The notes below the pieces were generated by a model. It did no database searches. It saw only the letters and a list, made by a program, of their open reading frames with translations, and was not told where the DNA came from. Positions 11,224 to 28,741 of a stretch of DNA of 32,000 nt are shown piece after piece; within the stretch, counting starts at the first letter, position 1; every line of letters starts with the position of its first letter. The DNA comes from Candidatus Saccharimonadota bacterium. Lineage in GTDB: Bacteria; Patescibacteriota; Patescibacteriia; 2-12-FULL-60-25. The translations under genes were made by a program, and so were the position numbers. The stretch lies in assembly GCA_022843095.1 (NCBI GenBank), contig JALHOH010000002.1, forward strand, positions 30,001 through 62,000, read 5' to 3'.

Positions 11224-12276
11224 ATGCAGCATCTCGACGCATGGCGCACGCGTTTTCATCCAATTCTTGAGGAATTGGTGGAGGAGCGTATTGCGGAATT
11301 CAGGGCAAAAACCAAGGAGTCTGTTTTGCGATCGCTTCTGGATCATGTGAAGCCGCTCGTCCTGGCGGGAGGAAAACGGATTCGACCCTACTTGGCGGCC
11401 ATGGTATTTGAAGCGACCGGGCGTTCGTCCGAAGAGGTGTTGCGCGTGCTCTGTGGATTGGAGCTCTTTCATGCCTTTGCGCTTGTCCATGATGACATCA
11501 TGGATCACGGGGAGATGCGCCATGGGGTCAGTACCATTCATACCTATGCGGCACAGGGGTACGTGCAGAGTCCACGTGCAGCAGAACTGGGTCGAAATCA
11601 GGCAATTTTGATTGGAGATTTGCTGTTTGCGTGGGCAGAGCGATGTTTTGGACAGATCCCATCGGTTCCGGCAGAGGCGGCGGATCAAGCAAGAGCCTAT
11701 TTCTCTGTCATGTGTGAGCAGGTCGTGTTGGGGCAGATGCTGGACGTCCATGCAACGCATGAGCCATTCGCGAGCATGGAGGACGTCATTCAAAAAATGT
11801 CGTTAAAAACGGCGGGATATACGTTTGTTCATCCGTTACAGATCGGTGCAGCGCTCGGGGGTGCACCCGTGTCCTGGATGGAATGGGCGGAGGCATTCGG
11901 TCGTCCGCTTGGTCTTGCGTTTCAGCTGCAGGATGATGTGCTTGATATTTGCGGAGAGGCGGCGGTTTTAGGAAAACGCCCGTGTATGGATGTACGTGAT
12001 CGTCAGCAAACGTGGGTATCAGAATGGATGCGACGGCATGCGCCTGATGCATGGAAGACGTTGCATGATACGTGGTGGGGTCGCGCGTTTTCTGTGGATG
12101 AAGAAGGGGAGGTGCGCGCGTTGTTTCAGCGTTCCGGGGTATTGGAAGCGGCGGATGAACAGGCACGACGTTGGTTGGAGGAGGCGCACATGGCCCTGAC
12201 ATCCGCTCCGTTTCAGGGCGCGACACGTGCCCCGTTTCAGGAACTGCTTCAGAAGCTCACCGATCGGAATACGTAA
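11224..12276 (+). CDS. crtE: Polyprenyl diphosphate synthase, probable geranylgeranyl diphosphate synthase
   Basis: FARM LVHDDIMD and SARM FQLQDDVLD. Phe at position -5 before an uninserted DDxxD fits C20 chain-length control. Sits upstream of crtB/crtI. Confidence 0.8.
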   Translation: MQHLDAWRTRFHPILEELVEERIAEFRAKTKESVLRSLLDHVKPLVLAGGKRIRPYLAAMVFEATGRSSEEVLRVLCGLELFHAFALVHDDIMDHGEMRHGVSTIHTYAAQGYVQSPRAAELGRNQAILIGDLLFAWAERCFGQIPSVPAEAADQARAYFSVMCEQVVLGQMLDVHATHEPFASMEDVIQKMSLKTAGYTFVHPLQIGAALGGAPVSWMEWAEAFGRPLGLAFQLQDDVLDICGEAAVLGKRPCMDVRDRQQTWVSEWMRRHAPDAWKTLHDTWWGRAFSVDEEGEVRALFQRSGVLEAADEQARRWLEEAHMALTSAPFQGATRAPFQELLQKLTDRNT

Positions 12277-12279
12277 TCT

Positions 12280-13149
12280 ATGGATGCAACACTCCATGCT
12301 GCGATTCGTCACTGCCGAGCGCTCCATCGCATGCATGGCAAGAGTTATTATTTCGCAACCGCATTATTTCCAAAGGATCTCCGCGACGCGACGTATGCCT
12401 TGTATGCATTTTTTCGAGTGCCGGATAACCTGGTAGATGCGGCGCATGCGGATGTTGTGCAGGCAGAAGCGGCGTTAGATGCGTTTCAGGAGGGATGGAA
12501 GCGGGCGTACCAGGAAAAAACGTCTGACGACCCTGTTTTGCATGCGACGCAATGGGTGTTTCATCAGTATGGGATCCCGTTTGCGCTCTCCACGGATTTT
12601 TTGCAGGCCATGCGGCAAGATCTTCACAAGACGCGCTATGCGACGTATGAAGCCTTGCGGCAATACATGTGGGGATCTGCTGCCGTGGTCGGACATATGA
12701 TGTGCTACGTGATCGGGATGAACGATCCGCGTGCGCTTCCGTTTGCGGAGAAGCTGGGCTACGCGATGCAGCTGACGAATTTTCTTCGCGATATTGGGGA
12801 GGATGTGGACGATCGTGGACGCATTTATCTTCCTGCGGATGAGCGCGCCGCGTTTGGTGTGACGGATGAAGTGGTGCAAGTGCATCAGATGTCTCCGGAG
12901 TTCATTTCTTTTCTTCAAGAGCAAATCGCGAGTGCCGATCGGTTATACGCTGAGGCAGAGCCTGGAATCGCGCTTCTGCATCCGCGTGGACGCTCGGCGG
13001 TTCGCGTGGCAAGTCGTCTGTATCAGCAGATTCTTCGCAAGATCGAGGCAAATCAGTATCGGGTGTTTGAAGGACGCGTCAGAACATCATTTTTGGAAAA
13101 ATGTATTCTAGCTCTTCGTGCGTTATGCATCAGAAACAGGTCATCGTGA
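12280..13149 (+). CDS. crtB: Phytoene synthase
   Basis: SYYFATALFP, YAFFRVPDNLVD (DxxxD), NFLRDIGEDVDDRGRIYLP. Confidence 0.9.
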   Translation: MDATLHAAIRHCRALHRMHGKSYYFATALFPKDLRDATYALYAFFRVPDNLVDAAHADVVQAEAALDAFQEGWKRAYQEKTSDDPVLHATQWVFHQYGIPFALSTDFLQAMRQDLHKTRYATYEALRQYMWGSAAVVGHMMCYVIGMNDPRALPFAEKLGYAMQLTNFLRDIGEDVDDRGRIYLPADERAAFGVTDEVVQVHQMSPEFISFLQEQIASADRLYAEAEPGIALLHPRGRSAVRVASRLYQQILRKIEANQYRVFEGRVRTSFLEKCILALRALCIRNRSS

Positions 13150-14630
13150 TCGGGGGTGGATTTGGAGGGCTTGGCGTGTCGGCGCTGTTGGCAAAAAAAG
13201 GGTATCGCGTAACGTTGCTTGAAAAAAATGAGCAGTTGGGCGGACGGGCGAGTCGGCTTTCCGTCGACGGATTCACCTTCGACATGGGGCCGACCTGGTA
13301 TCTGATGCCGGACGTGTTTGACCATTTTTTTCGGTTGCTCGGGACATTGGCGGCGAAAGAATTATCTCTTGTTCAGTTGCAGCCATCCGATCGGATTTAT
13401 TTTAAAGGATCCGGAAAAACGGTGGAGCTGTTTGCCGATCGTGTACGGGACCGCGAAACGTTTGAGCGTCTTGAGCCTGGGGCGGGTGCCGCGTTTATTT
13501 CGTACTTGGATCGGTCAAAGGAGCAGTATGAAATTGCGAAGCGTTCATTTTTGTATCGCAACTATGATCATGTCTGGGATTTTTTGAATCGTCAGACCTT
13601 GGTTGATGGAACGCGGCTTTCGGTGTTCCGCCGGATGCATGGGTACGTATCCTCGTTTTTTCGGACGCCGGAAGCGCAAAAACTGATGGAGTATCAGCTG
13701 GTTTTTTTGGGAAGTTCTCCGTATCAGGCGCCGGCGCTGTACAACTTGATGAGTCACGTGGATTACGATCTGGGCGTGTTCTATCCGATGGGGGGGATCT
13801 ACGAAGTCGTGCGCGCGATTGAACGCCTTGCGCGTGCGTCGGGGGTAGAGGTGCGGACACAGGCGCCGGTGGAGCGGATTCTCGTGGAACGTGGGCGCGC
13901 CGTGGGTGTTCGTTTGGAATCCGGAGAAGAGCTAACAGCGGACGCCGTGGTTTCGAACGCGGATCCACGCTGGACGGATGAGCAATTGCTGCCCGCCGGA
14001 TCGCGCGACCGCTCTGCGGGGTATTGGCGTCGCCGTACGCTTGCGCCCTCGGCATTTATTCTTTTCTTGGGGGTGAAAAAGAAGTTTGAAGGGTTGCGGC
14101 ACCATAGTTTGTTGTTTACGGAAGATTGGAAAAAGAATTTCATGGAGATTTTTGAACGCCCTGCGTGGCCGGAAGATCCGTCGTTGTACGTCTGTGCACC
14201 GTCTGTGACCGATCCAAGCGTTGCGCCACCTGGTCATGAAAATCTGTTCGTCTTGGTTCCGATTGCGCCCGGCCTCGCCGATCATGCGGAGGCGCGTGAG
14301 GCGTATGCGCAAAAAATCCTCCGGATGATGGAGGAACACATGGGGTTTGCAGGCTTACGCGAGAATCTCGTTCTTCAGCGATCGTTTTGCGTATCGGATT
14401 TTGCGTCGCGGTATCACGCGGATCGAGGGACGGCGCTGGGTTTGGCGCATACCCTTGCGCAGACCGCCGTGTTTCGGCCCAATAATATCAGCAAACGTGT
14501 CGGCGGATTGTATTATGTCGGCGCCGGAACCAATCCGGGGATTGGAATGCCGGTGTGTCTGGTCAGCGCCGAACTCGCGTATAAGCGGATTGTGGGAGAT
14601 CGATCCATCGGACCGCTTGAGACGTTGTAG
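13125..14630 (+). CDS. crtI: Phytoene desaturase (CrtI family)
   Basis: VIVIGGGFGGLG FAD fold, FDMGPTWYLMPDVF, C-terminal YYVGAGTNPGIGMP. ATG 13125 overlaps the crtB 3' end by 25 nt. Confidence 0.9.
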   Translation: MHQKQVIVIGGGFGGLGVSALLAKKGYRVTLLEKNEQLGGRASRLSVDGFTFDMGPTWYLMPDVFDHFFRLLGTLAAKELSLVQLQPSDRIYFKGSGKTVELFADRVRDRETFERLEPGAGAAFISYLDRSKEQYEIAKRSFLYRNYDHVWDFLNRQTLVDGTRLSVFRRMHGYVSSFFRTPEAQKLMEYQLVFLGSSPYQAPALYNLMSHVDYDLGVFYPMGGIYEVVRAIERLARASGVEVRTQAPVERILVERGRAVGVRLESGEELTADAVVSNADPRWTDEQLLPAGSRDRSAGYWRRRTLAPSAFILFLGVKKKFEGLRHHSLLFTEDWKKNFMEIFERPAWPEDPSLYVCAPSVTDPSVAPPGHENLFVLVPIAPGLADHAEAREAYAQKILRMMEEHMGFAGLRENLVLQRSFCVSDFASRYHADRGTALGLAHTLAQTAVFRPNNISKRVGGLYYVGAGTNPGIGMPVCLVSAELAYKRIVGDRSIGPLETL

Positions 14631-14634
14631 AAGC

Positions 14635-15504
14635 TCACGAAGTCAACCAGAGCGACCAGGCAAAAAGCAGCATGCCGGCAACCGTGTTGATAAATGGAAA
14701 TGCGCGGTAGACCGCGAAGAATCGCATCGGTGCATCAAAGACGCGAAGCGCGTGAAGCATGAGTAGCACATACCCGGCGCCCAAGAATTTAAACAGGGCG
14801 AATCCGGTGGCGAGGATGGCGAGTGTCGCGGCGCAGGCGTACAGCGCAAGACAGAATAGAAGCGTTCCACGTCGTCCAAGGGTGGTGGCGATGGTAGAGA
14901 GGTGTGCGGCGCGATCGGCTTCGATATCGGGGATGGCGCTGAAGGCGTGCATGGCAGCGCACCAAAGCGCCGCGGCAAGCAGGAGCCGCGTATCGAGCAC
15001 GGATCCACCGGCGAGCAGATAGCCGATGATGCCCGGAACGGCGTACAGGGCATTGCTTGTACTATCCAAAAATGGACGCGCTTTCAAGCGCAGCGGGGGG
15101 AGTGAATAACTAACGCTGAGGAATAAAAAGGCGGCGAACCACAGCCGAGTAGGGGCGAGTGGGGCCCACACAAGCCACAGTAGGAGAAATGGAAGGGTGA
15201 GACCCGCGATCGTGCGCAACAGCGCGGGCGCATCCGACGGAGAAAGGCGGGACTCATACCCGTCTTTTTTTGTATTTTGCGCGTCGGTATCCAGGTCTGC
15301 CGCATCGTTGACACCGTACAAAAATAGATTTGCCGGGAACGACCACCAAAGCATGTTCAGAAGGAGTGCGGGAAGTTGTGTCGAGGGGGGAAGACCCGGT
15401 GCTGCGGCAACACCAACAAGAAACGGTCCAAGGAGATACAGCCAAAAACGCACACGACTCGTGCGTTTCGCGACATTCCAGGGTACGATAGTCCACGCAT
15501 GCAT
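14635..15504 (-). CDS. UbiA-family prenyltransferase, lycopene elongase (LyeJ/CrtEb)-like by context
   Basis: YGVNDAADLDTD (NDxxDxxxD) and IPDIEADRAAH (DxxxD) motifs. About 8 TM helices. Convergent with crtI (4-nt gap) and head-to-head with the CruF-like gene. Confidence 0.7.
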   Translation of the reverse strand: MHAWTIVPWNVAKRTSRVRFWLYLLGPFLVGVAAAPGLPPSTQLPALLLNMLWWSFPANLFLYGVNDAADLDTDAQNTKKDGYESRLSPSDAPALLRTIAGLTLPFLLLWLVWAPLAPTRLWFAAFLFLSVSYSLPPLRLKARPFLDSTSNALYAVPGIIGYLLAGGSVLDTRLLLAAALWCAAMHAFSAIPDIEADRAAHLSTIATTLGRRGTLLFCLALYACAATLAILATGFALFKFLGAGYVLLMLHALRVFDAPMRFFAVYRAFPFINTVAGMLLFAWSLWLTS

Positions 15505-16239
15505 AGAATGAGTATGCCTCGCGCGCACGTTTTGGCAACCTGCGCCACCGGATGTGCCGTCCTTGTGGGGTGGATGGCTGCATCATTTACAGGGAATACG
15601 ACTTGGGTCGCCATACCTGCGCTTCTTTTAATGTCTCTCCCTTCGGTCACCGCATTTGTCCGATGGGTGGGGTGGACGCGTGGGGGTGCGGCATTGATTG
15701 CGTTATCGTTGTTTGCATTTCTTGTCGAAAGCGCGGCGGTATACACGGGGTTTCCGTATGGCGCGTTTACGTACGGCACTGGCTTGGGCCCCCGGGTTTT
15801 TGGGTTGGTTCCTTGGGTTGTGCCGCTTGGGTGGATCCCGTTGATTCTTGGCGCCGTACCGCTTGCGTCACGCATGGCGAGTGGATTTGCCTGGCGCGTT
15901 GCCTGGGCGGGAATCTTTGTCATGCTCATGGACGTGGTATTGGATCCCGGAGCGGTTCGGATGGGGCTCTGGACGTTTGTGGAAGGCGGAGGTGTTCATG
16001 GCGTTCCGATTCAGAATTTTGTGGGGTGGGTGATGACGGGGGTCTTGGGGAGTGGAATCGTGCAGGCATTTTCTCGTTTCACCACAACGCCGACCCCAGC
16101 GGCGCTTTGCATCAGCGCGGCGCTGTCGATGGGATTCTGGTTTGGGTATGCGCTCGGGGCTTCGCTTTGGGTTTCAATTGTCGTCGGGTGTGTCATGCTT
16201 GCGGGGATGGGATGGATCGTGTGGAGCGAAAGAAAATAG
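15499..16239 (+). CDS. Carotenoid biosynthesis membrane protein, CruF-like (carotenoid C-1,2 hydratase family, PF04240-like)
   Basis: [25 protein letters not shown] and [14 protein letters not shown] resemble the Caroten_synth/CruF family. Start uncertain (ATG 15499, 15508 or 15514). Confidence 0.65.
15511..15538 (-). promoter_or_regulatory. Candidate promoter TTGCCA-16-CATACT, 6 nt upstream of prenyltransferase ATG 15504
   Basis: Read on the minus strand. Lies inside the 5' coding region of the divergent CruF-like gene. Confidence 0.4.
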
Positions 16240-16264: not shown

Positions 16265-16273
16265 TGGTATACT
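16265..16273 (+). promoter_or_regulatory. Extended -10 promoter TGgTATACT, 6 nt upstream of AAA+ ATG 16280
   Basis: Read directly. No SD. Confidence 0.5.
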
Positions 16274-16279
16274 GCGTCC

Positions 16280-17497
16280 ATGCAACCGATCATTGCGCCA
16301 GGGACGACCTCCGGGCCAAATCCGTACATCATTATCGCCCTGCTTGCCGGCGCAGCGATTAGTTATTTGTGGACGCGCAATCGTTGGCGTCGCGAGCATG
16401 GAAAAGATGGCGGCACGTTGCCGGCAGGGACGGTGGGGAATGTGCTTGCAAAATACACCGAAGATCTGACCGCGCGTGCCGAACGCAAAGAATTGGATGC
16501 GGTTATTGGGCGGGATGAAGAAATTCGTCGCGTGATGCATATTTTGTCCCGACGAACGAAGAATAATCCCTTGCTGCTTGGAGAGCCTGGGGTCGGGAAG
16601 ACGGCAATCGTGGAAGGGATCGCACGACAAATCGTGGCAGGGGATGTTCCTGATGCGATCAAAGGTAAGCGTGTCCTTGCGCTGGATTTGGGGGCGCTGA
16701 TCGGCGGAACCAAATACCGTGGAGAATTTGAAGAGCGCATGAAAAAGCTCACCGAAGAAATTCGGGCCGAAGCGCGTCGTGTGATTTTGTTTATTGATGA
16801 GGTGCACATGGTGGAGCAGGCAAAAGGGGCAGAAGGGGCAATCAACGTGTCCGATATTTTGAAGCCGGCGCTCGCGCGTGGAGAATTGCAGATGATCGGG
16901 GCGACGACGTGGCGGGAATTTGAGATGTATATCAAAACCGACGATGCGTTGAACCGACGATTGCAGCCGGTCATCGTGGGCGAGCCTTCGGTTGATGCGG
17001 CGCTCGCCATTTTGCGGGGATTAAAGCAGACCTACGAAGCGTATCATCGTGTCGTGTATGACGAGGCGGCGCTGCAGGCGGCTGTGTCACTGGCGAAAGA
17101 GAAGATTCGAGATCGGTATTTGCCGGACAAAGCGATTGACTTGATTGATGAAGCAGGCGCGCGCGCATCCATTGAGGCGTCGCATGATGGAAAGCATGCC
17201 TTGGGGCTCTTGCATGCGGCCGGGGTAGAAAAGCAAGCAAAATTACAAACCGTGGATCGTCGGATCGCCATGCTGCGCGAAGAGTTGGGGCATGTGACCA
17301 GGCTTGCCGAAGATATGCGGCATGATCCGGAGTTGGACGAAATTCGCTTGCGATTGTCGCATGTCGTCGAGGCGGCAGAACACGTTCGTCAGGAGCTCGA
17401 TACCGGCGCTGGAGATCGTTTGCCGGTTGTGACCGCGACGGATATTCAGGACATTGTGGATGATTGGGTCGGAGCCGCTCCAGCAAATCCCCGGTAA
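16280..17497 (+). CDS. Membrane-anchored ClpB/ClpC-like AAA+ ATPase, D1 module only
   Basis: N-terminal TM ([16 protein letters not shown]). Walker A GEPGVGKT (16580-16603), pore loop KYRGEFEER, Walker [37 protein letters not shown]. Short coiled coil, then the D1-D2 linker [16 protein letters not shown] followed by a stop. Confidence 0.85.
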
Positions 17498-17519: not shown

Positions 17520-18914
17520 ATGCCTCCTTCAACCATGACAAAAACCACCACCCAAACCACCACGGCCACAAAAGTGGGCGTTGCGGTGACGATCGGGTTC
17601 GTGGCGGGTCTTGCTGCATACGGTTTTGGATTTTTACCCACGTTTGATCAGGGATACACCGAAGATGTGGCGCAGGTCGATCCGTATGCGATGTGCGTGG
17701 ATTCCTGCAAAGATCCCTTGGTCGGCTGTTTTGCCGCGGGTGGGGACGCGGATAGCTGTTATGAGCCGTACAATAGTTGTATTGCGAGTTGTAAACAGGT
17801 GAACGCACCGCAAACCGAAGAGATCGCCGTGCAGGATCAAACTGGGCAGTCACAACAAGGAGGGGAAAGTTGCAGTGAAATGTGTATGGTGAAGGTATCC
17901 GCCTGCTTGCAGCGCGTGGCAGATGGGAGTCAAGAAAACTGCGCAGAACAAAAAATCCTGTGCCAAATGTCCTGTGCACCGGCATCCTCGCAAACACAAG
18001 CCTGCTTTGGTCAATGTGATGCAGAGTTAAATAGTTGTCAGGGTGCGCGACGCGGAGACGATGATCGTGTGCAACAGTGTCGCTCGCAACATGAATCCTG
18101 CTACGAACGGTGCTACGACAATGAAAAGCGGGCGATTGAGAATGAACCAGCGCCTCCAACACCGCCCATTGCGCAAGATGTCCCGCCGGCACCGCCGATT
18201 CCTCCAAAGGAAGAGCCACCCGTCGAAGAACCAGCTCCGACGCCACAGGTTCCGGATGCAGATGTCTCTGGGTCCTGGATGTTGCCCACGGGGATGCTTG
18301 TCCTCGAGCAGAATGGGAAGTCGGTGAAGGGAAGCGCGATCCTGAACGTCCTTTCTTCAAAGCCTACGGATGGAGTGATTCCGGTGCTCAAGATGTATGT
18401 CCCGGTAGAAGGTACGGTGACGGGCAATACGTTCACGGGTGTATGGAAGGCGTGTTATTACTCGGAATCAAATTGCAGCAACAACCCCCTCGTTCTCACG
18501 TTTGATCCGGAAAAGCAGCAGTACAAGGGAGAAAAAGGATGGTGCGGAGCGCGTCCCGGGGTGACCTTCCCAGACGGCTGTGGGTTCTCCATGAAGGGGT
18601 GGAAGGTGAACGGGGCGATCACATGCGCGAACCCTACGATGACGTTGGAGCAGTGGGATGATCAGGTTAAAGGAACGATTTGCAACCGACCGTTTAAGGG
18701 AAGTATCGCGCCGACAACGGGCTTGAACGTCCACCTGACGGGTTTCATCGACAACAAGCCGGATACCTCGCATTCACTCAACTTCTACCTGTTTTTGGAG
18801 GAGAACGAGCCGTATGCAGGGAAGCCGTCGCAGATGCGTGGAAACTTCGCCATCAGCGAACCTCTCTGTGCCGCGGCGCCAGGAGAAGAGTTCCCAGAAC
18901 CGTGTGTTCAATAA
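17520..18914 (+). CDS. TM-anchored exported cysteine-rich protein (3 x six-Cys modules, Pro-rich linker, duplicated C-terminal domain)
   Basis: Thr/Lys-rich N-tail, then TM VGVAVTIGFVAGLAAYGFGFL. 18 Cys in three CX3CX6C...CX6CX3C modules. PAPPTPP...PAPTPQVP linker (18147-18254). 8 further Cys in the C-terminal half. Start could also be ATG 17535. Confidence 0.7.
   Translation: MPPSTMTKTTTQTTTATKVGVAVTIGFVAGLAAYGFGFLPTFDQGYTEDVAQVDPYAMCVDSCKDPLVGCFAAGGDADSCYEPYNSCIASCKQVNAPQTEEIAVQDQTGQSQQGGESCSEMCMVKVSACLQRVADGSQENCAEQKILCQMSCAPASSQTQACFGQCDAELNSCQGARRGDDDRVQQCRSQHESCYERCYDNEKRAIENEPAPPTPPIAQDVPPAPPIPPKEEPPVEEPAPTPQVPDADVSGSWMLPTGMLVLEQNGKSVKGSAILNVLSSKPTDGVIPVLKMYVPVEGTVTGNTFTGVWKACYYSESNCSNNPLVLTFDPEKQQYKGEKGWCGARPGVTFPDGCGFSMKGWKVNGAITCANPTMTLEQWDDQVKGTICNRPFKGSIAPTTGLNVHLTGFIDNKPDTSHSLNFYLFLEENEPYAGKPSQMRGNFAISEPLCAAAPGEEFPEPCVQ
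17694..17792 (+). repeat. Six-Cys module 1 (protein-level repeat) C-x3-C-x6-C-x9-C-x6-C-x3-C
   Basis: CVDSCKDPLVGCFAAGGDADSCYEPYNSCIASC, counted from the translation. Confidence 0.8.
17871..17975 (+). repeat. Six-Cys module 2 C-x3-C-x6-C-x11-C-x6-C-x3-C
   Basis: CSEMCMVKVSACLQRVADGSQENCAEQKILCQMSC. Confidence 0.8.
18003..18113 (+). repeat. Six-Cys module 3 C-x3-C-x6-C-x13-C-x6-C-x3-C
   Basis: CFGQCDAELNSCQGARRGDDDRVQQCRSQHESCYERC. Confidence 0.8.
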
Positions 18915-18927
18915 AGAAGAAACAGAA

Positions 18928-18954
18928 AACACCCACCGCGTTCCGGTGGGTGTT
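18928..18954. terminator. Hairpin terminator between convergent Cys-rich gene and antiporter gene
   Basis: AACACCCACCG-CGTTC-CGGTGGGTGTT. The T-rich tract is better on the minus strand (after the antiporter gene). Confidence 0.7.
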
Positions 18955-22446: not shown

Positions 22447-23271
22447 ATGCTCGACATTTCCGTGCCCGCAAAAGTGCTGTTTCACCTCGGTCCCGTTCCG
22501 GTGACCAATGCTGTCGTGGCAGCGTATGTCTCGACAGGCGTACTTGTGGTGATCGCGTTGCTTATTCGTCGCTCATTGTCGAGCGAACCCGGTCGTTTGC
22601 AGGCATTCATGGAACTATTGTTTGAGTACATCGATAACCAGCTCCTTCAAGCGTTTGGCGACCACACCCGTGCACGAAAGTTTTTTCCGCTGATCATGAC
22701 GTTGCTTTTGTTTATTGCGATCGCGAACCAGCTTTCGGTGTTTCCGTTGATTTTCCAGGTCCTTGTTGAGGATAAGCCATTACTGCGTCTTGCGACCTCG
22801 GATTTGAGTCAGACGTTGACACTTGGTCTTGTGGTCGTGATTTTGTCCCATATCGTGGCGCTGTCCATGGCACCACTCAAACACATCGGCAACTATTTCC
22901 GCATTGGCGCCATCCTTGCCATCCGTTCTCCAAAAGATATTGGCAACGCGTTAATTGAGGTGTTCTTGGGGATCATGGATCTGATTGGAGAACTTTCAAA
23001 AATCATCTCCATTTCCTGTCGTTTGTTCGGGAACCTGTTTGCCGGGGACGTCATGGTTGCGGTGATCGTCAGCCTTTCTGCGTTCACGCAGTTTATTGTG
23101 CCGATGCCGTTCATCTTTTTGGGGATCTTCTCCGGGTTTGTGCAGGCGCTGGTGTTTTCGCTCTTGTCGATCCAGTTTATCGCCGGTCTGGTAAACACGG
23201 CGGCGGCAAACAAAGAGGCGCGATTGAACAAGGGAAAACAAGCCGCTCTCGAGCAGCCCGCCACGGCCTAA
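22447..23271 (+). CDS. atpB: F1Fo ATP synthase subunit a
   Basis: SCRLFGNLFAGDVM (essential Arg) with polytopic topology. Confidence 0.9.
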   Translation: MLDISVPAKVLFHLGPVPVTNAVVAAYVSTGVLVVIALLIRRSLSSEPGRLQAFMELLFEYIDNQLLQAFGDHTRARKFFPLIMTLLLFIAIANQLSVFPLIFQVLVEDKPLLRLATSDLSQTLTLGLVVVILSHIVALSMAPLKHIGNYFRIGAILAIRSPKDIGNALIEVFLGIMDLIGELSKIISISCRLFGNLFAGDVMVAVIVSLSAFTQFIVPMPFIFLGIFSGFVQALVFSLLSIQFIAGLVNTAAANKEARLNKGKQAALEQPATA

Positions 23272-23282
23272 CAGTCTTGGCG

Positions 23283-23326
23283 CGCGGGAAGAGGATCTGA
23301 CAAACGTGTCGGATATTCTTCCCGCG
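23283..23326 (+). other. Long hairpin in atpB-atpE spacer
   Basis: CGCGGGAAGA (23283-23292) pairs perfectly with TCTTCCCGCG (23317-23326). Nested GACA-AACG-TGTC. A second small palindrome ATGACG-CT-CGTCAT lies at 23327-23340. Confidence 0.4.
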
Positions 23327-23365
23327 ATGACGCTCGTCATCCGATTTACTCATTTTTCTACGCAT

Positions 23366-23596
23366 ATGGAAGCAGAAGCAATGAAGTTTTTGGCCGCCGG
23401 CCTGTGCATGGGTCTTGGCGCCATCGGTCCGGCACTTGGGGAAGGGTTTGTGGCGGCAAAGGCCATGGAAGCCATGGGACGCAATCCGTCCGTCGCAGAC
23501 AAAATGGTGCCGAACATGATCGTCGCCATGGCCATTTGTGAATCCACGGGTATTTACTCCCTCGTCATTTCCCTCATTTTGTTGTTCGTCGTCTAA
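23366..23596 (+). CDS. atpE: F1Fo ATP synthase subunit c with Na+-site signature
   Basis: GLGAIGPALGEGFVAAKAMEAMGRNP...AMAICESTGIYSLVISLILLF. Start is ATG 23366 or 23381. The listed GTG 23306 extension is rejected. Confidence 0.9.
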   Translation: MEAEAMKFLAAGLCMGLGAIGPALGEGFVAAKAMEAMGRNPSVADKMVPNMIVAMAICESTGIYSLVISLILLFVV

Positions 23597-23618
23597 TCGA
23601 CGAGCATCGCGTCTCGAT

Positions 23619-24116
23619 ATGGATGCATTACAAAAACTCGGCATCGACGGCTGGAGCATGCTGCTCTACCTGGTGAATACCGGGCTCTTGCTCGTCTTAT
23701 TGACGAAGCTGCTTTACCGTCCGTTGCTTTCCATGTTGGACGAGCGTCGCGACACGATCCGTCGCAACTTGCATGAGACGGAGCTTTTGAAGCAGCGGTT
23801 TGCGGAAGAAACAAAACAGCGGGAGAAGGAAACGCGCGCTGCCATGGATCGGTTGCAGGCAGACATTGTGCTTGCAAAGGAGCAGGCGGAATCGCGTGTC
23901 AAAACGTTGCTTGCGAATGCGGAACAGGAACGAGATGCTTTGCTTGAAAAGGCGCGTATCCAGATTCAGGCCGAAAAGGGCCGCCTCTTGAAGGAGGTTG
24001 AGGTTGAATCGCGGAAGCGTATCGAGCAGACCATTCTCTTCGTCTTGAAGAATAAGATTCCCGAAGCCACCGTCCGCGCGAGCGTGGAAGAGGCGTGGAA
24101 GGAATTGCACGCGTAA
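23619..24116 (+). CDS. atpF: F1Fo ATP synthase subunit b
   Basis: Single N-terminal TM (MLLYLVNTGLLLVLL) followed by a long charged helix. Position in the operon supports the call. Confidence 0.85.
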   Translation: MDALQKLGIDGWSMLLYLVNTGLLLVLLTKLLYRPLLSMLDERRDTIRRNLHETELLKQRFAEETKQREKETRAAMDRLQADIVLAKEQAESRVKTLLANAEQERDALLEKARIQIQAEKGRLLKEVEVESRKRIEQTILFVLKNKIPEATVRASVEEAWKELHA

Positions 24117-24121
24117 TCCGT

Positions 24122-24877
24122 ATGTTCGCCTCCCTGCTTCGCGCTGCCATGAAAGACGTGCTCGGCGCGGTGACAAAACGCACCACGCTTGTATCGTCCT
24201 ATCCGCATGCGCTTCGTGTCTATGCGGAGCAGACCACACTGGATGGACTCGCAGAAGATCTACGCGCGCTGCTTCCGGCATTGGCCTACGGGACATCGCT
24301 GCGCGGGATCGCGACACGGGAAGAAGGCGGGGAAGGATCGGCGAAAGGACTCAATCTTGCCGAGCGTTTTGCGCGGGAACCGATTGGGTCGCGGGCGCCC
24401 ATGCCATCCATGGAATTCATGCGCGATTTGGATCAGTATCTCCAGTCGTTGGCAAAAACGCAGGCGACGCGCGTTGAAAACGGGTTTGTGAAGGCGCTCG
24501 CCATTGCCTGTCGAGAAGAGATCGCTGCAAGTCTGGATGATGCGCAGGTGTCGTTTCCGGGGACAGAGCTTGGGGCATTGCTGCAGGAGTGGCATCGCCG
24601 AACGGTGGTCACCGTTGCGGAAGAGCACATCGGCGAGGTGCTCGCGCGGGAATGCGGGGTGACGCCGGTCTTGGTCCAGTCTGCCGCTCCGGTTGCTCCA
24701 TCGGTGCGTCAGGAAATGCGCGCGGCTCTTGCGCGGAACTATGGGGCGGTGTTCGTCCGATTTCGGACGGAGCCGTCGGTGTTCGGTGGATTGCGGGTGT
24801 TTGTGCGCGGTGCGTTGCAGGATCAGACCTGGATCGCCCGCGTCGGTCGCGTGTTGCAGCCTGAACAGGGTTTTTGA
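24122..24877 (+). CDS. atpH: F1Fo ATP synthase subunit delta (OSCP), divergent and elongated
   Basis: Position between atpF and atpA. C-terminal VRFRTEPSVFGGLRVFVRGALQDQTW is OSCP-like. 251 aa. Confidence 0.6.
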   Translation: MFASLLRAAMKDVLGAVTKRTTLVSSYPHALRVYAEQTTLDGLAEDLRALLPALAYGTSLRGIATREEGGEGSAKGLNLAERFAREPIGSRAPMPSMEFMRDLDQYLQSLAKTQATRVENGFVKALAIACREEIAASLDDAQVSFPGTELGALLQEWHRRTVVTVAEEHIGEVLARECGVTPVLVQSAAPVAPSVRQEMRAALARNYGAVFVRFRTEPSVFGGLRVFVRGALQDQTWIARVGRVLQPEQGF

Positions 24878-24888
24878 TCCGATTTCGT

Positions 24889-26403
24889 ATGTCTCACGAT
24901 TCTCTCCAACAATTTTTCAAAGCCATCGACCTCGCGCTCGCGGAGGCGAAGCCAAGCGGCGCCATCTCCGGCGTCGGCGTGATCCGTTCGGTCAAGGACG
25001 GCATCATTGAAATCGGCGGGTTGCCGGAGGTGCGCCTCGGTGAAGTGGTGCGCGTGCTGGGTACGCCGGCGCACGCCCTCGTGATGCAAGTGGATCGCGA
25101 TGCCGCGTTCGGCATCCTGCTTGAATCGTCGGAGGGGATCCGCGAAGGACTTTCCGTGCAGTCGGAAAATCGCTTCCTCGCGATCAACGTTTCTGATGCG
25201 ATTTTGGGCCGCGTCGTCGATCCGCTGGGGGTGGTGCAAGATGAAGGACCGTCGCTGGAAGGGGGGAAGCCCATGATGTTGGAAGCGCAGGCGCCGTCGG
25301 TCATGGATCGTTCGCCGGTGAATACGCCGGTGCAAACGGGGATTGTGGCCATCGATGCGCTGATTCCGATTGGTCGCGGGCAACGCGAACTGATCATTGG
25401 CGATCGTCAGACCGGGAAAACAACGGTGGCGATCGACACGATTTTGAACCAAAAAGGGAAGGGGATGATCTGTATTTACGTTGCCGTTGGGCAGCGTGAA
25501 TCGCGCACGGCAGAAGTTGTGACGTTGCTCAAAGAGCGCGGTGCCATGGAATACACGGTTGTCGTGTCTGCGGGGGCCTCGAGTCCGGCGATCATGCAGT
25601 TCCTTGCGCCGTACGCGGGAGCTGCGGTCGGGGAATATTTTATGCACCAGGGCAAAGATGCGCTTGTGGTGTACGACGATCTGTCCAAGCACGCCGTGGC
25701 GTATCGTGAAGTGTCGTTGCTTTTGCGCAAACCGCCGGGCCGTGAAGCCTTCCCGGGAGATGTGTTTTACATCCACTCTCGGTTGCTTGAACGCGCCGCA
25801 AAGCGCGACGAAAAAGTGGGAGGCGGGTCGTTGACCGCGCTTCCGATCGTCGAAACGCAGGCGAACGACGTTTCTGCGTACATTCCGACGAACGTCATCT
25901 CCATCACGGACGGGCAGATCTTCCTAGAGTCCTCGTTGTTCTACCAGGGGATTCGTCCGGCCATGAACGTCGGGATTTCGGTGTCACGCGTGGGTTCGGC
26001 TGCGCAGACGAAAGCGATGAAAAAAGTGTCCGGGACGGCGAAGCTGGATTTGGCGCAGTACTATGAGCTGGCTGCGTTTTCGCAGTTTGCGTCTGAATTG
26101 GATGCGTCGACCAAGCAGCAGCTGACACGTGGGGAACGCGTGGTTGAAGCGTTGAAGCAGCGCGCACATGAAATTTTGCCACTCTGGCAAGAGGTTGTGT
26201 TTTTGCGCGCCGCGTCGTCTGGTTTGTTGGATCGCCTCCCGAAGGACAAGGTCGTCTCCGCGTTGCGCGAGATGGCAAACGTGTTTGAGATGCGCCATGC
26301 CGACCTTGTGCAGGCGTTGGAAGAGACGAAGGCTTGGTCCGATGAACTGGGGCCAAAGGTGGATGCGGCGTTGAAGAGCCACTTCGAAGCGCTCGCCGTT
26401 TAA
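24889..26403 (+). CDS. atpA: F1Fo ATP synthase subunit alpha
   Basis: GDRQTGKT P-loop, LVVYDDLSKHA, SITDGQIFLE. ATG 24889 preferred over TTG 24874. Confidence 0.95.
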   Translation: MSHDSLQQFFKAIDLALAEAKPSGAISGVGVIRSVKDGIIEIGGLPEVRLGEVVRVLGTPAHALVMQVDRDAAFGILLESSEGIREGLSVQSENRFLAINVSDAILGRVVDPLGVVQDEGPSLEGGKPMMLEAQAPSVMDRSPVNTPVQTGIVAIDALIPIGRGQRELIIGDRQTGKTTVAIDTILNQKGKGMICIYVAVGQRESRTAEVVTLLKERGAMEYTVVVSAGASSPAIMQFLAPYAGAAVGEYFMHQGKDALVVYDDLSKHAVAYREVSLLLRKPPGREAFPGDVFYIHSRLLERAAKRDEKVGGGSLTALPIVETQANDVSAYIPTNVISITDGQIFLESSLFYQGIRPAMNVGISVSRVGSAAQTKAMKKVSGTAKLDLAQYYELAAFSQFASELDASTKQQLTRGERVVEALKQRAHEILPLWQEVVFLRAASSGLLDRLPKDKVVSALREMANVFEMRHADLVQALEETKAWSDELGPKVDAALKSHFEALAV

Positions 26404-26408
26404 CGTTC

Positions 26409-28741
<2,333 letters not shown>

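Follow-up and report, generated by a model that had tools for sequence, protein, structure and literature searches.

The DNA analysed here, called the window, is a stretch of 32,000 nucleotides from a Candidatus Saccharimonadota genome (contig JALHOH010000002.1, positions 30,001 to 62,000). It encodes a membrane-anchored AAA+ ATPase that consists of the first AAA+ module (D1) of the Clp/Hsp100 proteins and ends before the second (D2), and that belongs to a family of such proteins found nearly exclusively in Patescibacteria. In this architecture and this family we have high confidence. The gene directly downstream encodes a single-pass membrane protein with a Thr/Lys-rich N-terminal leader. We propose that the ATPase is a membrane-tethered, single-ring unfoldase of the Clp/Hsp100 D1 type, which forms a functional cassette with the downstream gene and grips the cytoplasmic leader tails, a reading to which we give an even chance.

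The open reading frame (ORF) of the ATPase lies on the plus strand, starts with the ATG at 16280, stops with the TAA at 17495-17497 and encodes 405 amino acids. The Pfam scan found AAA at residues 98-210 and AAA_lid_9 at residues 237-306, both of them D1-type models, and no match to Clp_N (Pfam: PF02861), AAA_2 or ClpB_D2-small, as was expected by an earlier note made from the sequence alone. The NCBIfam ClpB model (TIGR03346) aligns over profile positions 154-404 of 853 only and scores 363 bits, against an equivalog cutoff of 1232 bits, and the ClpB, ClpA and ClpV models of NCBIfam each match by their first half only. The protein does not have the two modules (D1 and D2) of the class I Clp/Hsp100 proteins, nor the double Clp repeat of Clp_N, as its first 54 residues consist of a tail, a single helix and a linker that is disordered. 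The D1 hallmarks are all present, namely Walker A and B, the KYRGEFE pore loop, the double Arg finger and AAA_lid_9. The gene and its parts are the following.

16280..17497, plus strand: gene of the membrane-anchored, D1-only Clp/Hsp100-type AAA+ ATPase, 405 amino acids (ORF, translation, Pfam, NCBIfam, AlphaFold2 model and structure matches).
16322..16372, plus strand: hydrophobic N-terminal anchor helix, residues 15-31, after a 14-residue N-tail (Kyte-Doolittle 1.84 over 17 residues).
16373..16441, plus strand: basic patch and Gly-rich flexible linker, residues 32-54 (predicted local distance difference test, pLDDT, <50 at residues 44-48).
16442..16987, plus strand: D1 large (alpha/beta) AAA+ subdomain, residues 55-236 (61% identity to canonical ClpB D1; strand/helix pattern of the AAA+ core in the model).
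16580..16603, plus strand: Walker A GEPGVGKT, residues 101-108 (G101, G104, V105, G106, K107 and T108 invariant in 68 aligned members).
16706..16732, plus strand: pore loop 1 GTKYRGEFE, residues 143-151, including Tyr146 (T144, R147, G148, E149 and E151 invariant; K145, Y146 and F150 conserved in at least 90% of members).
16781..16804, plus strand: Walker B VILFIDEV, residues 168-175 (F171, D173 and E174 invariant).
16955..16960, plus strand: Arg fingers R226 and R227 in ALNRRLQ (R226 invariant, R227 in at least 90% of members).
16988..17197, plus strand: D1 small (lid) subdomain, residues 237-306 (Pfam AAA_lid_9, E 4.7e-23).
17198..17401, plus strand: M-domain-like coiled-coil hairpin, residues ~307-374 (helices 283-345 and 350-374 in the model).
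17423..17470, plus strand: final strand and helix closing the D1 small domain, residues 382-397 (pLDDT 90-96; P382, V384, I389 and W396 conserved).

All D1 motifs that had been listed in the earlier note (Walker A and B, pore loop, sensor-1, ALNRRLQ and the C-terminal motif) are thus found in this ORF. Sensor-1 is the IGATT at residues 206-210, with T210 invariant among the 68 aligned members, which are the window protein and 67 homologues. In ClpB the inter-subunit hydrolysis of ATP depends on these Arg fingers, according to the available part of the source (PMC4239642). The degenerate Walker A motifs that some members appeared to have were an artefact of the regular expression, and the GxxGVGKT residues are invariant.

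The C-terminal motif of the ATPase aligns to 'VSEEDIAQVVSTWTG' of ClpB, at residues 533-548 of 867, and the D2 Walker A of ClpB is found 60 residues further. The ATPase therefore ends just before D2, as the earlier note had read it, with its stop codon 8 codons past the final strand and helix. The same note had called this motif the inter-ring linker. The motif is there, and another label describes it better: the terminal element is modelled at pLDDT 90-96 and is for this reason counted, on the strength of the model, as an integral part of the folded D1 small domain and not as a free inter-ring linker.

The AlphaFold2 model was built on the 68-sequence family alignment and has a mean pLDDT of 88.6 and a predicted template modelling score (pTM) of 0.73. 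Its N-terminal part has a disordered tail (residues 1-7), a helix (15-40) and a disordered segment (44-48), and the linker is followed by the AAA+ alpha/beta core, the helical lid, a two-helix hairpin (283-345 and 350-374) and the strand and helix at 383-397. The hairpin corresponds to the short coiled coil that was predicted from the sequence. It begins after HAxGLLHAAG, a motif specific to the anchored D1-only family, and the ATPase aligns with the ClpB construct 4hse, which consists of nucleotide-binding domain 1 and the M-domain (NBD1-M), up to residue 374. The top matches of the sequence search against the PDB are ClpC D1 with 300 bits and ClpB D1 with 295 bits. In Foldseek, 245 residues superpose on ClpC1 D1 with a root-mean-square deviation (rmsd) of 2.0 A and 57-59% identity. 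All 44 listed PDB-chain sequence matches and the 50 best-ranked Foldseek matches are Clp/Hsp100 D1 modules.

We called the membrane anchor by hydropathy, charge bias and family-wide conservation. The earlier note had proposed that Clp_N is replaced by a short N-terminus with one hydrophobic helix, and this is what the hydropathy of the window protein, the model and the whole family agree on. Among the 68 members the best 17-residue stretch has a median Kyte-Doolittle value of 2.2, with at least 1.6 in 62 of them, and the helix is preceded by a median of 5 residues. The 10-residue basic segment directly after the window helix has a net charge of +3, and across the family the net charge averages +2.2 over the 12 residues that follow the helix and +0.8 ahead of it. 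Because the positive charge is higher after the helix than before, the sequences fit an N-out/C-in topology with the AAA+ module in the cytoplasm, which is also where the positive-inside argument of the earlier note had placed it.

The ATG at 16280 is preceded, at a distance of 6 nt, by a TATACT hexamer (16268-16273), and nothing that resembles a Shine-Dalgarno sequence can be seen there. The mRNA of the ATPase might be leaderless.

The homologue search covered 5.8 billion proteins and detected more than 100 homologues with the same layout, 330-440 amino acids long and 45-65% identical, on contigs of up to 362 kb. Their hosts are nearly all Patescibacteria (Uhrbacteria, Magasanikbacteria and Doudnabacteria), and in the databases they carry only the generic labels 'AAA family ATPase' and 'Clp protease ATP-binding subunit'. 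When 1.84 billion representatives were searched exhaustively with a profile, the anchored D1-only layout was found in about 13 clusters (at 50% identity), in which anchor and end point are kept. The remaining strong profile matches are ordinary Clp proteins, with an alignment that starts after the anchor. In a scan of species genomes with the whole protein, one of 80 loci (L007) contains a family member and the rest are canonical ClpB D1 loci from other phyla. We define the family by a short N-tail and a single hydrophobic helix, followed by a linker rich in Gly and basic residues, a live D1 and a C-terminus at most about 10 residues past the WxG of the C-terminal motif, and this definition fits the window protein and the 67 aligned homologues.

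The distance from LPDKAID to the C-terminus falls into three length classes of ~70, ~120 or ~160 residues, and in a subclass of 327-345 amino acids the coiled-coil hairpin is nearly absent. Since the hairpin varies in length and is nearly lost in the short subclass, it is not part of the conserved core. A protein identical to the window ATPase is found on a 525,788-bp NCBI contig and a copy with 99% identity in a Logan assembly made independently. Searches of the full-text literature gave no published description of a D1-only or membrane-anchored Clp, or of the pair of ATPase and leader genes, in Patescibacteria, which agrees with the earlier note, to which no characterised bacterial example was known.

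The top matches of the family profile also include proteins that carry two or three D1-type modules in tandem and lack D2-type motifs (P0122, P0123, P0129, P0131 and P0132), of which P0122 has a hydrophobic N-terminus in addition. These tandem-D1 architectures are unrelated to the anchored D1-only family.

Besides the ATPase itself, the gene next to it carries a recurrent feature. In the window this gene starts 22 bp past the ATPase stop codon, with no terminator-like site between the two, and its 464-residue product has no Pfam or NCBIfam match. A sigma-70 promoter scan around the gene pair found no complete promoter. The features of this part are the following.

17520..18914, plus strand: 'TK-leader' single-pass membrane protein, 464 amino acids with 26 Cys, putative client or partner of the ATPase (leader hidden Markov model, HMM, 85 bits, E 7e-25).
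17520..17573, plus strand: Thr/Lys-rich leader tail MPPSTMTKTTTQTTTATK, 18 residues, predicted to be cytoplasmic (composition across 18 leaders).
17574..17639, plus strand: leader membrane helix VGVAVTIGFVAGLAAYGFGFLP (Kyte-Doolittle 1.78 at residue 19).
18928..18954, no strand assigned: GC-rich palindromic hairpin with an 11-bp stem, terminator-like, after the leader gene and between convergent genes; likely the end of the two-gene unit.

The window leader protein is homologous to the neighbour of the ATPase in locus L001 over the first ~100 residues only, and to the neighbours in more distant loci it shows no homology. We therefore rejected the idea of one orthologous neighbour: the downstream proteins have no overall homology, and the leader alone is common to them. 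In the 15 loci inspected the neighbours have an N-terminal signature of a Thr/Lys/Ser-rich tail and one membrane helix, often ending in AAYGFGF, followed by a variable ectodomain that is rich in Cys, belongs to the CARDB/CLIPPER type or consists of acidic disulfide repeats. The AAYGFGF motif of the window helix is also found in the neighbours of L001, L003, L088 and L093. The tails of 18 leaders are 14-24 residues long with 29% Thr, 16% Lys and 10% Ser, have beta-branched residues at period 2 and are net positive, which argues for a cytoplasmic (N-in) position. Judged from these sequences, the conserved partner is a class of neighbours that is defined by a common N-terminal leader. Of the orthologue survey suggested in the earlier note, the D1-only layout was borne out in more than 100 homologues, and the same neighbour was not, its place being taken by this leader-defined class.

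An HMM was built from ten leader N-termini and searched against every possible ORF start, with flanks of 8-10 kb covered on each side of each ATPase. In 11 loci of the Candidate Phyla Radiation (CPR; 209 kb) there are 13 strong matches, all inside the ATPase gene cluster, and one weak match with an internal start in L090 (E 0.004). Three of the matches were not part of the seed: in L007 two leader genes follow the ATPase directly, and the third is in L006. No leader match was found outside the ATPase clusters in 268 kb of CPR loci. The control loci (1.27 Mb with 45,578 candidate N-termini), which are the non-family, canonical ClpB D1 loci of the species-genome scan, gave none at all. The association was replicated in all of the held-out loci L093, L095, L096 and L097; three of these come from divergent subgroups, and in each of the three a leader protein is encoded within two genes of the ATPase. 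Altogether this is the case in 12 of 14 independent loci. By a rough estimate with ~15 genes per locus and random positions, the held-out matches within two genes in 5 of 5 loci have a probability near 0.001.

The reverse search points the same way. A metagenome scan that started from the leader (an alignment of 3 sequences) gave 3 confirmed loci, two of them new (L093 and L094), with the ATPase immediately upstream of the leader in both informative loci; L094 is too short to tell. In L093 (2225-7467) the cassette is present in tandem, with an ATPase of 327 amino acids, a leader protein of 501, a second ATPase of 331 and a second leader protein of 493. Both of these ATPases belong to the short class in which the hairpin is nearly absent. 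The leader profile found 4 short proteins only in the protein database and is too insensitive there to gauge the genome-wide frequency of leaders.

Two other readings of the gene pair were dropped. The leader is not type IV pilin-like, as Lys/Arg and not Gly precedes the hydrophobic stretch and there is no FTLIE-type motif. A defence system was considered as well, and PADLOC gave generic AAA matches only.

A second Clp family in Patescibacteria shows the converse pattern. On the 362-kb contig, a full-length Clp of 859 amino acids (L001:1586-4165) is encoded 6 kb upstream of the ATPase homologue P0007, and it is 27.6% identical to the D1-only protein in D1. It belongs to a two-ring Clp family with 120 listed members (P0272-P0391), all from Patescibacteria, with 54-67% identity and ~860-915 amino acids. 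This family also has Clp_N and differs from canonical Clp proteins as follows.

D1 Walker B: hhhhDE in canonical Clp, ILVM(H/E/N/Q)G in the full-length Patescibacteria Clp.
D1 pore loop: KYRGEFE in canonical Clp, AGD-P(A/G/S)LA in the full-length Patescibacteria Clp.
D1 Arg fingers: RR in canonical Clp, lost in the full-length Patescibacteria Clp.
D2 Walker A: intact in 120 of 120 full-length Patescibacteria Clp proteins.
D2 Walker B: intact in 117 of 120 full-length Patescibacteria Clp proteins.
N-terminus: Clp_N only in canonical Clp, CxxC...CxxC and then two hydrophobic segments (104 of 120) in the full-length Patescibacteria Clp.

Membrane segments are thus predicted in both the D1-only ATPase and the two-ring Clp. 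Literature searches found no characterised counterpart of a two-ring Clp with a dead D1. A ClpP-loop in the full-length Clp was judged spurious, as the 'KGIGF' matches of the regular expression fall in the C-terminal small domain. The two-ring Clp P0311 is recorded on an NCBI contig of 525,788 bp, equal in length to the one with the window ATPase, and the genome of the window therefore very probably carries both proteins. With tblastn and two D2 modules (CPR Clp and canonical ClpB) as queries, no D2 was found elsewhere in the 32-kb window, and among 15 CPR loci (268 kb in total) D2 is present in one and absent from the flanks of the other 14. It follows that the ATPase and the two-ring Clp are not a regular pair in cis. 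At the level of motifs, this looks like a complementary specialisation of an ancestral double ring, with a live D1 on its own in one protein and a dead D1 together with a live D2 in the other.

By established knowledge of AAA+ proteins, six ATPase subunits would form a ring, with six anchors that tether it to the membrane on the cytoplasmic side. The anchor would be attached by ~15-20 flexible residues to the N-terminal face of D1, where substrates enter, so that the pore would face the membrane as in FtsH and Msp1. The pore-loop tyrosines would then capture the Thr/Lys-rich cytoplasmic tail of the co-encoded leader proteins and pull on it with the energy of ATP, the tail being a suitably placed and sized handle for them. 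The result could be extraction, turnover or recycling of surface proteins, or control of their insertion or export. As the ATPase has no D2, it has no ClpP-docking module, and for any degradation it would depend on another protease. Whether the leader proteins are direct clients is in our judgement a balanced question, and any specific outcome of the engagement is less probable than that.

Several points weigh against this reading. Two of the 14 loci (L090 and L091) have no leader protein beside the ATPase, from which we conclude that the partnership is not obligatory in cis, and further leader proteins may be encoded elsewhere in the genomes, beyond the flanks of 8-10 kb. The formation of hexamers by a D1-only module is assumed. 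It would be energetically demanding to drag a single-pass, N-in protein back across the membrane when its ectodomain is rich in disulfides. Finally, the adjacency of the genes could come from co-regulation of envelope genes and not from a relation of enzyme and client.

This last point is central to the alternative that the ATPase is a generalist of membrane-protein quality control, similar to Msp1/ATAD1 or to an FtsH without protease, which surveys the exposed tails of misassembled proteins and has no dedicated client, the leader being adjacent because envelope genes cluster. The N-terminal anchor and the single ring with an intact pore loop are indeed the layout of an extractase, two loci have no leader neighbour and the wider neighbourhoods are otherwise variable. 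A generalist would, however, not be expected to accompany a single, narrowly delimited class of neighbours, and the leader link is very specific, with 0 matches in the controls, all matches in the ATPase cluster and a cassette that is duplicated as a unit. We consider this alternative unlikely. We rate as rather more doubtful a divided two-ring Clp, in which the D1-only protein supplies the live D1 that the ~900-residue Clp has lost, the two being stacked, mixed or acting sequentially at the membrane. It has in its favour that the full-length family has lost the acidic pair of the D1 Walker B, the pore-loop Tyr and the Arg fingers and has kept D2, that both genes are 6 kb apart in L001, and that the NCBI contigs recorded for the window ATPase and for P0311 have the same length of 525,788 bp. 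Mixed rings are nevertheless unlikely with D1 modules that are 27.6% identical, the two-ring Clp is missing from the flanks of 14 of 15 loci, co-occurrence is seen in two genomes only, and two-ring AAA+ proteins with a dead D1 can work alone. A divided Clp is compatible with the gripping of leader tails by the anchored ATPase.

The similarity of D1 to ClpB D1 (~60% identity) and the coiled-coil insert at the position of the M-domain might also indicate a membrane-localised disaggregase, which dissolves aggregates at the membrane together with DnaK via the hairpin. We think this improbable: ClpC D1 is an equally close match, the leader cassette is left unexplained, and a hairpin that varies in length and is nearly absent in the 327-345-residue subclass cannot be indispensable for the core function. 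An artefact or a decaying gene, that is a ClpB or ClpC truncated by misassembly, frameshift or recent deletion, or a split gene, has next to no probability left. The end at the boundary of D1 and D2 is what a truncation might give. More than 100 homologues, which come from many different samples and assemblers, however keep the same end point and anchor, their catalytic residues are invariant, and the two further copies of the window protein, on the NCBI contig and in the Logan assembly, agree with it. No D2 follows downstream in any frame. The family-wide conservation thus refutes a misassembly, frameshift, pseudogene or split gene, and none of the three objections that the earlier note had raised against itself, a D2 encoded separately close by, a misassembly at the end of the ATPase and the lack of a membrane helix, holds, as the anchor too is conserved across the family.

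More tentatively, and with more doubt than belief on our side, the leader, the ATPase and the two-ring Clp may be combined into one membrane-protein system of Patescibacteria with three parts, a TK-leader tag, an anchored Clp-D1 motor and a two-ring Clp with dead D1 and live D2. The leader, prone to form beta-strands, would be a cis-encoded address tag on fast-evolving surface proteins. The single-ring motor would read the tag from the cytoplasm and power removal, recycling or control of export, and the membrane-embedded, D1-dead Clp would be the complementary product of the same ancestral machine. If true, the system would be the first bacterial counterpart of a dedicated extractase of the Msp1 type, built from a Clp D1 module.

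In the textbook classification, the Hsp100 proteins of class I are soluble machines of two rings, and their known single-ring relatives are D2-like. A conserved, catalytically intact and anchored D1 shows that D1 is selectable as a stand-alone motor. The anchored ATPase is a minimal natural system for D1 alone, and the link to the leader turns an orphan ATPase into a candidate pair of enzyme and client. The complementary D1-dead Clp suggests a subfunctionalisation of the AAA+ double ring, which is of general interest for the evolution of such machines. The hosts are uncultivated, host-dependent Patescibacteria, in which surface proteins are thought to mediate attachment and the biology of the envelope is largely obscure.

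The wider surroundings of the ATPase contain further genes. Directly upstream of it in the window there is a gene cluster of the carotenoid type (11224-16239), which would be unusual for a Patescibacterium with a small genome.

11224-12276: polyprenyl synthetase.
12280-13149: phytoene/squalene synthase.
13101-14630: phytoene-desaturase-like flavin adenine dinucleotide (FAD) oxidase.
14635-15528, minus strand: UbiA prenyltransferase.
15376-16239: Caroten_synth.

An operon of the F-type ATP synthase is found 5-7 kb downstream of the ATPase both in the window (22447-28741) and in L001 (17788-21173), and its position is a remnant of synteny between these genomes. All 2-kb bins of the window (1-32000) have a positive GC skew (0.05-0.19), and most genes are on the plus strand, which fits a position of the whole window on the leading strand of one replichore. 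In the Uhrbacteria loci L003, L087, L088 and L089 there is a conserved synteny ~2 kb upstream of the ATPase, in the order ruvB, an ORF of 80 amino acids, a bPH_2 membrane protein, the ATPase and the leader protein, followed by SpoIID on the opposite strand and then Polysacc_synt and Wzy_C. We rejected bPH_2 and ruvB as partners of the ATPase, because their synteny is confined to this subgroup and absent from the window. In L095 (8001-10585) a gene for a Peptidase_M50 protein, similar to site-2 proteases, separates the ATPase gene from that of a CARDB leader protein. The ATPase and M50 ORFs as called in this locus have identical first 12 residues, MKSCGVDILGMP. This suggests that a 5' segment was duplicated or that the starts were wrongly called. 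In L088 (12156-13157) a reverse-transcriptase gene (RVT_1) is found 3 kb downstream of the cluster of ATPase and leader and may be part of a diversity-generating retroelement that targets surface proteins.

Compared with known systems, the ATPase is closest to the D1 of ClpC and ClpB. Its large and small subdomains agree with theirs in sequence and fold (57-61% identity; 245 residues superposed with an rmsd of 2.0 A). It also shares with them both Walker motifs, sensor-1, the double Arg finger and the KYRGEFE pore loop, as well as a coiled-coil insert at the position of the M-domain and the terminal VTxxDIxxVVxxWxG element. It differs from both in being D1-only, without Clp_N and D2, in the membrane anchor that replaces the N-domain, and in a coiled coil that is a single hairpin of variable length, nearly absent in the short subclass. 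ClpB has a long four-helix M-domain that binds DnaK, whereas the ATPase has a two-helix hairpin. In ClpC and ClpA the ClpP-docking loop is located in D2, which the ATPase does not possess. Without two rings and an N-domain, and with scores far below the NCBIfam equivalog cutoffs, it is not classified as ClpA, ClpB or ClpC.

The likeness to Msp1/ATAD1 or FtsH that the earlier note had pointed out is one of architecture only, consisting of an N-terminal anchor and a single AAA module. Like Msp1/ATAD1, the ATPase has a short linker after the anchor and an aromatic pore loop. Msp1 extracts membrane proteins by threading, as described in the available part of the source (PMC7018516). Beyond the generic AAA fold the two are not relatives in sequence or structure, and the ATPase does not belong to the Msp1 subfamily. 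It is bacterial and has a coiled-coil insert, and its candidate clients are co-encoded and carry the leader. The substrates of Msp1, in contrast, are tail-anchored proteins that have been mislocalised.

FtsH is likewise bacterial and N-terminally anchored, and its one AAA ring is located on the cytoplasmic side of the membrane, as is predicted for the ring of the ATPase. Degradation by FtsH begins at cytoplasmic tails about 20 residues long, which is similar to the leaders of 14-24 residues. In contrast to FtsH, the ATPase has no M41 zinc peptidase and no periplasmic domain, has one membrane helix instead of two, and its module is of the Clp D1 type and not of the FtsH type. FtsH is a membrane-anchored protease in the quality control of membrane proteins, according to the part of the source that is available (PMC7949044).

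Human CLPB/Skd3, ClpX and HslU are also single-ring unfoldases that belong to Clp/Hsp100 or are related to it. Their modules are of the D2 type (HCLR clade). The ATPase, in contrast, is of the D1 type, as is visible from its match to the first half only of the ClpB, ClpA and ClpV profiles. By architecture the ATPase is like Msp1/ATAD1 or a protease-less FtsH, and by descent it is a Clp/Hsp100 D1.

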